A stretch of DNA of 5,871 bases from a virus (lineage: Duplodnaviria; Heunggongvirae; Uroviricota; Caudoviricetes), in the IMG/VR virus record IMGVR_UViG_2534682252_000030; one strand, written 5' to 3'. Under the pieces are notes generated by a model. It saw only the letters and a list, made by a program, of their open reading frames with translations. It did no database searches and was not told the origin of the DNA. Shown here piece by piece: positions 1-5,871 of this stretch. Every line of letters begins with the position of its first letter. Position 1 is the first letter of the stretch. The position numbers and the translations under genes were made by a program.

Positions 1-461
1 GATCATCGCTTCAGTTCCTGTATCAGCAGAGTCAGGAGCTTTTCGCTGACATTGCCATTGAAGCGGAGCGTCCCGTGCCGGAACGTTACCTCACAGCTGA
101 TACTGAGGGTTTCCGGGTCCTCTGCGAGCGATTCTGGCTGTTCGGCAGCTGCGTCGAGAGTCACAGGAAGTAGCTGGGGGCTCTCTGAAGAAGGTAATAG
201 CAGCTTTCCCTCGCGCCATTGTTGTCGCCATTTGAACAACAGATTGGCGTTAATGCCATTTTCAAGAGCAAGTTTTGAGATGGATATCCCGGGTTCACAG
301 GAGGCAGCAACGAGCTGCTGTTTAAATTCGGGAGGATAATTAGGGCAGCCTTTTCGCCTGCCGGGAGTCACATTTTTCTGCATATCTGATACTTTGGTTC
401 CCACTACTTATTTGGTGGACACCACTTTGTCTAATTCGTCAGATTCTGACCAGACGGTTCA
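1..461 (-). mobile_element. Inner end of an IS66-family-like insertion sequence; element continues past window start, exact terminus not resolvable (between 384 and 461)
   Basis: tnpA-like ORF at 3-383 replaces the expected large-terminase gene directly after a truncated Nu1-like ORF. The minus-strand sequence at the junction begins TGAACCG, and its TGA is the stop codon of the truncated ORF. No canonical IS66 GTAAGCG-type end was seen and the other end is outside the window. Confidence 0.4.
3..383 (-). CDS. IS66-family TnpA-like (orf1) accessory transposase protein; ATG at 383 preferred over the GTG at 404 used by the ORF track
   Basis: Translation MQKNVTPGRRKGCPNYPPEFKQQLVAASCEPGISISKLALENGINANLLFKWRQQW has the HTH pattern of IS orfA proteins. 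The C-terminus CEVTFRHGTLRFNGNVSEKLLTLLIQELKR resembles the conserved C-terminal block of IS66 TnpA as I recall it. No obvious Shine-Dalgarno sequence. Confidence 0.55.
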   Translation of the reverse strand: MQKNVTPGRRKGCPNYPPEFKQQLVAASCEPGISISKLALENGINANLLFKWRQQWREGKLLLPSSESPQLLPVTLDAAAEQPESLAEDPETLSISCEVTFRHGTLRFNGNVSEKLLTLLIQELKR

Positions 462-2213: not shown

Positions 2214-2681
2214 TCACGGTATACACTGGGTACGGATATATTCCTGTGCTCCTTCCAGTTGCTTCTGCATTGCCATCAGCCGTTCTCTGAGGATGAAATA
2301 ATCCCGTTCAGCGGCTTCTGCCAGTCGGGGACCGGTTGCATTATCCACGCCGGAGGTGATGGGGGCTTTACGCAAGGAGCCTGGACAGTTGGCGTTGATG
2401 CGCAGGCGCTTACGACCAGCGGCAACATCAGCACGCAGAGTTTCATTTTCAGCTCTCGCATCGGCTAATTCCCTCGAGTATCTGGCATCAAGTGCAGCGA
2501 CATCACGCTGGCGTACCTGCATATCAGTAATTGTCACGTTCGCCAGCTTCAGCTCACTGGCTTTTTTATCGCGTTGCGCTTTGTAGGTAATGGCGTTATC
2601 GCGGTAATGATTCAGCCCCAGACTAAGCACACCACAGGCTACCAGCAGGACAATAATCACCACACACAGAACACGGTTCAT
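2214..2681 (-). CDS. Rz: Rz i-spanin (inner-membrane spanin subunit), 155 aa
   Basis: MNRVL...[45 protein letters not shown]...[20 protein letters not shown] aligns along its length with lambda Rz. N-terminal TM segment present. Confidence 0.9.
2276..2461 (-). CDS. Rz1: Rz1 o-spanin lipoprotein, embedded in the +1 frame of Rz
   Basis: [20 protein letters not shown]...[32 protein letters not shown] matches lambda Rz1, including the lipobox (VVSAC) and proline-rich core. True start may be the internal Met at about 2446. Confidence 0.85.
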
Positions 2682-3754: not shown

Positions 3755-4098
3755 TCAGGCCAGCGGTGGAGTCTTCAGAGAACCCGTAATTATTCCCGGT
3801 AGTTTTCCTCTGTAGGTTATCAACACATCCTGCGCCTCTAAAATTACGGGACGCTTTTCCGGTAACGGACCATCCCCTTCACATAACCCGGCAGCAACAT
3901 CCATGAAAAACTGCTTCGCCTGCTTTTTCGCCTCAGCTTCGTAAAACTCCAGCGTGGCACCTTCAGTACGGTCAAGACTAATCGCCACATCTGGCAACAA
4001 CAGTGACGGATACCCACCAATTTCCGGTGCCACAGTAACAGTAATCTTATCCGGGTAATTATTTATCCCTTTAACACCCAGTTCGTATTTTTCTTCAT
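3755..4098 (-). pseudogene. YdfR-like (DUF1327-like) small protein gene between holin and endolysin, disrupted by an apparent 1-nt deletion in an A5 run
   Basis: ATG at 4098 with GGGGGGAG 7 nt upstream opens MKKNTNWVLKG then stops. One extra A in the A-run (4088-4092) would join it to the long open frame MKKKYELGVKGINNYPDKITVTVAPEIGGYPSLLLPD...TPPLA ending at 3755. The track ORF 3755-4033 is the GTG-initiated tail of that frame. Family name is from memory of Qin gene order (essQ-ydfR-rrrQ). Confidence 0.45.
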
Positions 4099-4102
4099 CG
4101 CT

Positions 4103-4306
4103 TTACTCCCCCCGCGCCGCCTTACGACGGTCCTCTCTGATTTTGAAATACAGGTTAGTCAGATACGTCAGCAGGCCAAACAGCAGACTCCCAGCACACC
4201 GATTGCCACCCACTGGACGGAGAGACTTTGTCCAGCAGCTGCAGTAACCAGTATCCCGTCCCACCGCTGACGTGGTGTATGACACACCTGTTGTGATTTT
4301 TTCCAT
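4103..4306 (-). pseudogene. S: Class II pinholin (S21 / EssD-like) gene carrying three apparent single-nucleotide deletions
   Basis: The annotated frame gives [16 protein letters not shown]...[28 protein letters not shown], with a holin-like N- and C-terminus but a scrambled middle. The holin-like middle appears in the other two frames: [14 protein letters not shown], then QWVAIGVLG. Frame switches fall near 4260-4267, 4215-4218 and 4190-4192, each in a G or C run. Confidence 0.7.
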
Positions 4307-4493: not shown

Positions 4494-4568
4494 CACCCAT
4501 CACTGTCTGTCAGAAAATGTACTGCCAGATATAAGTATCATGTGAAACCCAACTATCCTTCTTAGCCA

Positions 4569-4571
4569 GTA
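4569..4571. repeat. Target-site duplication GTA (left copy) of the IS3-family element
   Basis: GTA directly flanks both ends of the element (4569-4571 and 5645-5647). IS3-family elements make 3-bp duplications. Confidence 0.7.
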
Positions 4572-4596
4572 TGAACCGCCCCGGAAATCCTGGAGA
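4572..4596 (+). repeat. IS left inverted repeat (IRL)
   Basis: TGAACCGCCCCGGAAATCCTGGAGA; matches the reverse complement of the right end at 22/25 positions. Confidence 0.8.
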
Positions 4597-4625
4597 CTAA
4601 ACTCCCTGAGAAAGAGGTAAACAGG

Positions 4626-4952
4626 ATGACTAAAAATACTCGTTTTTCCCCCGAAGTCCGTCAGCGGGCGATTCGTATGGTTCTGGAAAGTCAGGATGAA
4701 TATGACTCACAGTGGGCGGCAATTTGTTCCATTGCCCCAAAGATTGGCTGTACGCCGGAGACTCTGCGTGTCTGGGTTCGCCAGCATGAGCGGGATACCG
4801 GGGGCGGTGATGGTGGGCTCACCAGCGCTGAACGTCAGCGTCTGAAAGAGCTGGAACGTGAAAATCGTGAACTGCGCCGCAGTAACGATATCCTTCGCCA
4901 GGCTTCCGCTTATTTTGCGAAGGCGGAGTTCGACCGCCTCTGGAAAAAATGA
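4626..4952 (+). CDS. IS3-family transposase OrfA (HTH / leucine-zipper DNA-binding component), 108 aa
   Basis: [22 protein letters not shown]...[34 protein letters not shown] is a typical IS629-group OrfA. SD-like GAGG upstream. Confidence 0.85.
4943..4949 (+). other. Candidate -1 programmed frameshift site (A-run) at the orfA/orfB overlap
   Basis: A6 run 4944-4949 directly before the orfA stop TGA (4950-4952), with orfB in the -1 frame starting ATGATG at 4949. IS3-family transposases are normally made as an OrfAB fusion by -1 frameshifting on an A-rich heptamer. Confidence 0.5.
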
Positions 4953-5602
4953 TGCCACTGCTGGATAAGCTGCGTGAGCAGTACGGGGTCGGACCGGTAT
5001 GCAGCGAACTGCATATTGCCCCGTCAACGTATTACCATTGTCAGCAACAGCGACATCATCCGGATAAACGCAGTGCCCGTGCGCAGCACGACGACTGGCT
5101 GAAGAGAGAGATACAGCGCGTATACGATGAAAATCATCAGGTGTACGGTGTGCGTAAAGTCTGGCGTCAGTTGTTACGGGAAGGAATCAGGGTGGCCAGA
5201 TGTACAGTGGCACGTCTCATGGCGGTTATGGGACTTGCCGGTGTTCTCCGGGGTAAATGGGCCCGTCGTCCGTCTGGCACCATCCATCACAGCGATAAAG
5301 GCTCTCAGTATGTGTCACTGGCCTATACGGAGCGACTAAAAGAAGCCGGATTACTGGCATCAACAGGGAGTACAGGCGACTCGTATGACAACGCGATGGC
5401 TGAGAGCATCAATGGTCTTTACAAAGCGGAGGTAATACACCGTAAGAGCTGGAAAAACCGTGCAGAAGTGGAACTGGCCACACTAACGTGGGTGGACTGG
5501 TATAACAATCGACGATTGCTGGGAAGGCTGGGCCATACTCCTCCGGCAGAAGCAGAAAAAGCTTATTATGCTTCCATCGGAAACGATGATCTGGCAGCCT
5601 GA
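4949..5602 (+). CDS. IS3-family transposase OrfB (DDE catalytic component) with an in-frame internal deletion of about 75-80 codons; probably catalytically dead
   Basis: 217 aa versus roughly 290 aa for IS3-family OrfB. Only about 11 residues separate GVLRGK from HHSDKGSQY (second catalytic Asp), where full-length proteins carry about 80 residues including the first Asp (D.TY motif). Downstream [15 protein letters not shown] block is intact. Junction near 5255-5260. Confidence 0.75.
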
Positions 5603-5619
5603 GTTCACAGATAAAACAC

Positions 5620-5644
5620 TCTCCAGGAAACCCGGGGCGGTTCA
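5620..5644 (-). repeat. IS right inverted repeat (IRR)
   Basis: Reverse complement reads TGAACCGCCCCGGGTTTCCTGGAGA. Confidence 0.8.
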
Positions 5645-5647
5645 GTA
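5645..5647. repeat. Target-site duplication GTA (right copy)
   Basis: Identical to 4569-4571, immediately abutting the IS end. Confidence 0.7.
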
Positions 5648-5682
5648 CTTCTCCGACGAAAGTCAGTACTGGCTGTTTTTTT
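5648..5682 (+). terminator. Intrinsic terminator hairpin split by the IS insertion (left stem arm is at 4564-4571 plus 5648-5649)
   Basis: With the IS and one GTA copy removed the site reads AGCCAGTACT tctccgacgaaagtc AGTACTGGCT GTTTTTTT: a perfect 10-bp stem and a T7 tract on the plus strand. Confidence 0.45.
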
Positions 5683-5683
5683 A

Positions 5684-5871
5684 TTATGCTGCCGGTGCAT
5701 TTATCTCCAGCATCAGACTTTCTATCTCAACGCCATACGCTGCATTTTTTGTAACATCCGTCAGCGTCAGCGCATTCAGTCCCAGTGTCAGACTGTCTTT
5801 TATAACCTGGAATGCCGGGCCAGCCACTCCATTCAGTTTCGGAGTAACCATGGCACTGCCGGCGGTGAACA
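5684..5871 (-). CDS. 3' end of a gene running off the right edge (61 C-terminal codons), product unknown; sits where lambdoid phages carry the late-gene activator
   Basis: Open minus-strand frame from the window edge to TAA at 5684-5686: ...AMVTPKLNGVAGPAFQVIKDSLTLGLNALTLTDVTKNAAYGVEIESLMLEINAPAA. Not in the ORF track because it has no start in the window. I do not recognise a family. Confidence 0.35.
   Translation of the reverse strand, partial: FTAGSAMVTPKLNGVAGPAFQVIKDSLTLGLNALTLTDVTKNAAYGVEIESLMLEINAPAA

Follow-up and report, generated by a model that had tools for sequence, protein, structure and literature searches.

An internally deleted IS629 allele at site IS.15 of an Sp14-type prophage of E. 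coli O157:H7 and its probable origin by ectopic gene conversion

IS629 is the commonest insertion sequence of E. coli O157:H7. Like the IS3 family in general it moves by copy-out/paste-in transposition, with OrfA, which carries a DNA-binding domain, acting as a regulator. Gene conversion has long been assumed to act in the concerted evolution of IS copies. The intact 1310-bp element, IS629/IS1203 (IS3 family, IS51 group), has the same ends, 3-bp target-site duplication, orfA, A6 frameshift site and ALIL pseudoknot as the copy described here; compared with intact IS629, our copy is without IS positions 687-923 and OrfB residues 104-182, and no active transposase is predicted from it. In plasmid assays with IS1203v/IS629, summarised by Chandler and colleagues, OrfAB supplied in trans led to excision at ~1e-3, and OrfA alone lowered excision from 7.8e-7 to 3.8e-9, i.e. 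~200-fold (bioRxiv 10.1101/2023.06.07.543989). An internally deleted IS629 kept in a genome has been reported from O55:H7 CB9615, where 86 bp are missing (Rump et al. 2011, PMC3271280); going by its description, it is another deletion and belongs to another lineage. The engineered, C-terminally truncated OrfAB of IS911 offers a further comparison, as the product of our copy is likewise predicted to have the DNA-binding and leucine-zipper part without a working core.

The closest counterpart is the copy in prophage Sp4 of strain Sakai, which is base for base the same 1073-bp allele. It is annotated there as two 'IS1203 partial' segments (686 and 387 bp, ECs_1089/ECs_1090) and Table S2 of Rump et al. 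2011 (PMC3271280) gives it as IS.1, the coordinates there covering 1073 bp. The exact 217-aa product is also in NCBI already, and a 216-aa form from Sakai is found in NCBI and UniRef as 'IS629 transposase'. The deleted allele, annotated and published already, is not new. What is modestly new is its presence at site IS.15, together with the evidence for its movement between resident IS629 copies by recombination.

The window, i.e. the whole stretch of 5871 bp that was analysed, comes from a lambdoid prophage of E. coli O157:H7 and matches Sakai Sp14 at 99.8% from position 472 on, the 237 bp missing from the IS aside. The small terminase gene is interrupted by an ISEc8 element (IS66 family), whose end, with tnpA on the minus strand (3..404), makes up positions 1-471; a fragment of the small-subunit terminase is located at 459-734. 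Further to the right come a ylcI-like gene, a PerC-family regulator (pchC type) and a minus-strand group of Rz (with Rz1 embedded in it), endolysin R, ydfR and holin S. As is usual in lambdoid lysis cassettes, the Rz1 lipoprotein gene (2276-2461, minus strand) is out of frame within Rz (2214-2681). To the right of the IS629 copy lies the 3' end of a SASA-family esterase gene, so that the copy occupies the S-esterase intergenic region of an Sp14-type prophage.

The IS629/IS1203 element extends over 4572-5644 and measures 1073 bp compared with 1310 bp for an intact copy. Its retained 1073 bp show 100% nucleotide identity to copies annotated as IS629/IS1203 (Sakai, RefSeq), above the 90-95% used as the criterion for the family. 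The left inverted repeat (IRL, 4572..4596, plus strand) begins TGAACCGCCCCGG, the same as in intact IS629, and the right inverted repeat (IRR, 5620..5644, plus strand) ends CCGGGGCGGTTCA, with a C at IS position 1297 in the window copy. A repeat search of the window paired IRL and IRR over 25 nt with 88% complementarity, the outermost 13 nt being perfect, and the repeats open with 5'-TG and close with CA-3' (TGAACC...GGTTCA), as expected of the IS3 family. On the basis of the sequence, the left and right GTA copies of a 3-bp target-site duplication were located at 4569..4571 and 5645..5647, one on each side of 4572-5644 and within the 3-4 bp expected of the IS3 family. In many E. coli genomes the two flanks fused with a single GTA gave a one-piece match of 400/400, which represents the empty site; hence, the GTA duplication is real.

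The insertion sits in the left arm of a palindrome with a 10-bp stem (AGCCAGTACT, 15 nt, AGTACTGGCT), followed by a run of seven T (4564-4571 plus 5645-5685). This palindrome is an intergenic hairpin between the esterase and holin genes and is unbroken in the empty sites. Within orfA, a pseudo-end at 4793-4808 (GGATACCGGGGGCGGT) is 88% like IRR positions 5626-5641 and complementary to IRL; it has no relation to the endpoints of the deletion described below.

orfA (4626..4952, plus strand) is intact and encodes 108 aa with an HTH_Tnp_1 domain (PF01527, 47.3 bits), and in the alignment its product is identical to OrfA of intact IS629 copies. The A6 slippery run (4944-4949), the orfA stop codon TGA (4950-4952) and the orfB start codon ATG (4949-4951), all on the plus strand, overlap; the programmed -1 frameshift takes place here, between orfA in phase 0 and orfB in phase -1 as in the IS3 family, and RefSeq labels intact IS629 copies with 'programmed frameshift'. 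The ALIL frameshift-stimulating pseudoknot was found at 4907..5023 (plus strand) with 121.5 bits over the full model 1-117 of Rfam RF01497, for which the gathering score is 50. The deleted form of orfB (4949..5602, plus strand) encodes 217 aa compared with 296 aa in intact copies and retains HTH_21. The OrfAB fusion should accordingly be reduced to a predicted 325 aa from 404 aa, and the RefSeq annotation spans 977 nt, as a pseudogene, in the deleted copy and 1214 nt in intact copies.

An alignment to intact IS629, suggested as a check along with the original prediction, shows a single 237-bp gap and otherwise no difference. IS629 positions 687-923 are gone, with the junction between 5257 and 5258 (plus strand), where the BLAST match splits as well, and the alignment together with an inspection of the deleted segment gave 0 bp of exact microhomology at the breakpoints. 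The missing 237-bp segment is present in thousands of IS629 copies. The gap is codon-exact, between K103 and W104 of OrfB, with 79 codons lost and the reading frame retained. Of the intact protein, residues 104-182 are absent, and the lost peptide includes LWVADFTYV with D136.

In intact OrfB (296 aa) the spacing from D195 to E231 is 35 residues, with a Lys seven residues beyond the Glu, and D136/D195/E231 together with K238 form what we take to be the classical DD(35)E signature, which IS3-family transposases share with retroviral integrases. The triad was placed by motif spacing and Pfam; a search of the PDB by sequence returned no relative close enough to refine it. What remains in the window OrfB is D195 (HHSDKG; codon 5294-5296), E231 (NAMAES; codon 5402-5404) and K238, so a complete DD(35)E triad is not present. 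Consistent with this, the Pfam rve match of intact OrfB reaches 96.9 bits and spans model positions 2-101, and that of the window OrfB reaches 29.2 bits over positions 60-101, below the gathering score of 32.6. OrfA and the 325-aa fusion should both still be produced. As its RNase-H-like core has lost the first strands and helix, with D136 among the missing residues, the fusion should be catalytically dead, while it should still be able to bind the ends and multimerise without catalysis. As the triad of OrfB is incomplete through the loss of D136, the window copy is, judged from its sequence, a defective and non-autonomous derivative. The original prediction had described an IS629-like element of 1073 bp with good inverted repeats and GTA on both sides, an in-frame internal deletion of about 80 OrfB residues that removes the first catalytic Asp, and a non-autonomous derivative as its result, and in all of these points it agrees with the alignment, the repeat search, the empty site and the domain scores.

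The distribution of the deletion was followed with a 40-nt junction sequence, GCCGGTGTTCTCCGGGGTAAA to the left of the junction and TGGGCCCGTCGTCCGTCTG to its right. Of 5426 closed E. coli genomes, 103 contain it, at the Sp4 site. IS629-like sequence occurs in 4252 genomes, and the names among the 60 listed of the 103 junction carriers are O157:H7, O157 or unnamed E. coli only. Between the same Sp4 flanks, an intact 1310-bp IS629 is located in TW14359, EC4115, SS17, SS52 and other O157:H7 strains. Since the same flanks hold intact IS629 in many O157:H7 strains, the 237-bp deletion arose within the existing Sp4 copy, in one sub-lineage. The IS629 of Sp4, intact or deleted, lies at one end of an inverted S-R-Rz-pchA segment (Sakai Sp4 extract 6001-7073). 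At the far end of the inversion (10470-10600) the esterase terminator is joined to the 5' part of ylcI via a filler of ~22 bp, and the Sp4 arrangement is an old IS-associated inversion. The Sp4 copy, at the end of the inverted lysis cassette, has no target duplication (GAT/TTA), whereas the window copy has the GTA duplication and lies in Sp14-type DNA.

The flanks of the window copy (TTAGCCAGTA / GTACTTCTCC) are those of IS.15, a site in Sp14 described with these flanks by Rump et al. 2011 (PMC3271280, Table S2) and occupied in all O157:H7 strains of the A6 clonal complex that were tested in that study (PMC3271280). In 302 closed genomes an intact 1310-bp IS629 is found at this exact position with the same flanks, whereas the deleted form was found there in none of the 5426 closed E. 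coli genomes. The asymmetric query behind these counts, used because equal flanks give tied one- and two-piece scores, ran from 20 nt left of the junction through the right-hand part of the IS into 150 nt of flank. With intact IS629 at IS.15 in 302 genomes and the deleted form in none, the GTA duplication is old and was made by an intact IS629. It is uninformative on the mobility of the deleted element, and its reading as a "fresh-looking" mark of that element in the original prediction has to be given up.

The deleted allele was also found at two sites other than Sp4 and IS.15. Its contexts were gathered by a look-up of the exact 217-aa product, which led to Sp4 in most contigs. One deleted copy lies in abgT, with an AAA duplication, in the closed genome of FRIK1989 and in an independent draft (AERQ01000013.1). 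IS629 is found at the same nucleotide of abgT in 94 closed genomes, and the deleted form was seen in FRIK1989 only; the other 93 score as intact, and 39 of them were listed, each with a two-piece match. The second deleted copy lies in a prophage xis gene beside mlrA, with a CTAC duplication, in a draft (AVQT01000042.1) and in the IMG/VR record UViG_2541047164_000041, and intact IS629 occupies this site in 4-5 genomes. All four sites (Sp4, abgT, xis and IS.15) hold intact IS629 in other genomes, and the deleted copies in abgT and xis resemble the window copy in that their site is held with the same duplication by intact IS629 in relatives. On true plasmids the allele was not found among 72,556 plasmids (PLSDB). 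The sole PLSDB match, NZ_CP124741.1 32541-46580 ('plasmid unnamed2', 287 kb, from an EDL933 assembly), was rejected as a mislabelled piece of chromosome with the Sp4/CP-933M region. A further draft contig (AVQV01000012.1, 37-1108) also has the deletion; the copy there shows a 1-bp indel in orfA, lacks a target duplication and ends on the right against an internal part of ISEc8. The contig runs on into IS30-related DNA and is a mosaic of IS fragments.

A nucleotide difference within IRR allows the abgT and xis copies to be compared with their possible sources. IS position 1297 is A in the intact residents of abgT (EDL933) and xis (F7349), and C in the Sp4 copy and most other IS629 copies. The deleted copies in abgT carry 1297C, so that the deletion and the SNP of the donor occur together over at least 374 bp. 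In FRIK1989 the Sp4 site has kept its deleted copy alongside the one in abgT, so the transfer to abgT was non-reciprocal; the draft GCA_000193955.2 contains two deleted copies as well. The joint transfer of SNP and deletion into abgT and the dual copies of FRIK1989 are what ectopic gene conversion between IS copies leaves behind. The deleted xis copy retains the resident 1297A, which fits a shorter conversion tract. The FRIK1989 genome was assembled from Nanopore reads with Flye and then polished with Pilon (bioRxiv 10.1101/2022.09.30.510420). Its 1297C could in principle stem from the polishing, which counts against conversion, but the independent draft with the same allele opposes this.

Together with the identity of the alleles, these cases make ectopic gene conversion the probable origin of the window copy, with Sp4 as the donor of the deleted allele and an intact IS629 resident at IS.15 as its recipient. 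An intact IS629 inserted at IS.15 long ago, creating the GTA duplication, and the Sp4 copy acquired the 237-bp deletion. RecA-type homologous recombination, confined to the IS, would have carried the deleted Sp4 allele into the resident IS.15 copy, and no transposition would have been involved; for IS.15 this conversion step is drawn by analogy with the abgT and xis cases. At IS.15, abgT and xis alike, the deleted copy has the site, orientation and duplication of the intact copy in relatives, as expected of conversion. The abgT copies have a linked SNP that shows co-conversion, whereas the IS.15 copy has no marker to tell: the intact copy resident at IS.15 and the Sp4 copy differ by no distinguishing SNP, so a co-converted marker cannot prove conversion for the window, and the presumed donor would lie outside its 5.9 kb.

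Recombination between the two prophages has left a trace elsewhere in the window. The junction of ISEc8 with the terminase gene is identical to that of Sakai Sp4, and such an Sp4-type junction beside an Sp14-type lysis cassette is found in four closed genomes, strain 122 included. In strain 122 this ISEc8/nu1 junction is shared by Sp4 and the Sp14-type locus, which indicates that copying of insertions from Sp4 to Sp14 by recombination happens in its lineage. A reciprocal inversion between Sp4 and Sp14 as the origin of the ISEc8 part of the window is excluded, as strain 122 has the junction in both prophages; hence, the copying of ISEc8 was non-reciprocal. The window as a whole has no exact counterpart among the closed genomes.

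An error of assembly or finishing, in which an intact IS629 really lies at IS.15 and the deleted Sp4 variant was misplaced during repeat resolution or gap filling, is an unlikely explanation, though as the main rival it has to be weighed seriously. The window departs from Sakai Sp14 by three SNPs and six 1-bp indels, of which five are homopolymer deletions and one is an insertion; the indels lie at 4088, 4190, 4215 and 4260 (ydfR and holin) and at 1449 and 1559 (pchC). Three of the 1-bp deletions fall in the holin gene (net -3) and leave the ORF at 4103..4306 open with ~24 residues scrambled, and the exact frameshifted holin product has no database record. A mixture of Sp4 alleles into Sp14 was excluded as a source of these odd indels, as neither prophage matches them; they could be sequencing errors or real decay. 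As the differences are mostly of the homopolymer type typical of sequencing error, the source assembly is probably error-prone, and an error at the IS itself would agree with the lack of the deleted form at IS.15 among the 5426 closed genomes and with the draft origin of two of the other ectopic deleted copies. On the other hand, the orientation of IS629 relative to the esterase gene is opposite in Sp4 and Sp14, so that long reads from Sp4 cannot overlay IS.15. Moreover, with ~17 intact copies for each deleted one, a consensus would be pushed to the intact form, and the similar event in abgT was recovered twice independently, once from long reads assembled with Flye and once in a draft genome.

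What the deleted copy may still do in the cell was considered by analogy with the plasmid assays and with truncated OrfAB. Its ends could respond to transposase from other IS629 copies, while its own contribution is more likely to be inhibitory, and a dominant-negative effect of its product may be envisaged. That the allele spreads by conversion, with OrfA and the dead OrfAB forming a selected trans-dominant brake on IS629 transposition and on IEE-dependent excision, is in our view a doubtful extension of this idea.

An independent recurrence of the same 237-bp deletion in situ, within the IS.15 copy, is quite improbable. An imperfect GGYCCGT repeat just 3' of both breakpoints, 2 bp inside each, might favour slippage, and the xis copy with its resident 1297A would be compatible with a deletion in situ. 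The repeat agrees at 6/9 positions, however, which is near chance, and there is no exact microhomology. The junction is the same to the base at four loci, the deletion in abgT is accompanied by the 1297C of the donor, and despite the presence of IS629 in 4252 genomes the junction is, among the carriers listed, confined to the O157:H7, O157 and unnamed E. coli noted above.

Even less probable is a mobilisation of the deleted element in trans by intact IS629, with insertion at IS.15 and a GTA duplication of its own. The original prediction had proposed that the element could be mobilised in this way, and in principle it could: both ends are intact, OrfAB in trans works on IS1203v/IS629 ends (bioRxiv 10.1101/2023.06.07.543989), and 14-21 other IS629 copies per O157:H7 chromosome are available as a source of transposase. 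The genomic record, however, shows no such movement. With intact IS629 at IS.15 in 302 genomes, this course of events requires the exact loss of the resident copy and then a re-insertion at the same nucleotide in the same orientation. Duval-Valentin and Chandler are said to have argued in 2011 that IS3-family transposases such as IS911 prefer to act in cis, which likewise counts against it. The terms cis and trans have a different meaning in PMC3299598. A site exclusive to the deleted form was not found in genomes, drafts, IMG/VR or plasmids, the mosaic draft contig AVQV01000012.1 set aside, and de novo sites with their own duplication, as expected of a trans-mobilised MITE-like derivative, were not observed for the deleted allele. 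Finally, an IS3-family element with a naturally short OrfB and a complete DDE triad, the alternative that the original prediction had named as its own refutation, can be dismissed, as it has nothing but the open reading frame in its favour, whereas a single gap interrupts a sequence 100% identical to IS629 on both sides and D136 and rve model positions 2-59 are missing.

The window element itself is ordinary. Knowledge of the mechanism of the IS3 family is unchanged by it, and its value lies in annotation and typing. In the literature we found no description of the spread of a defective allele by conversion among IS629 copies, and ectopic gene conversion from Sp4 into IS.15, abgT and xis would be a modest but concrete case of such spread. 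For annotation, a target duplication that looks intact is no guide to the age of the element now found between its copies. For typing, IS-printing distinguishes O157:H7 strains by the presence or absence of IS629 at fixed sites, and an allele shorter by 237 bp that shifts between resident copies by recombination would alter amplicon sizes without transposition.
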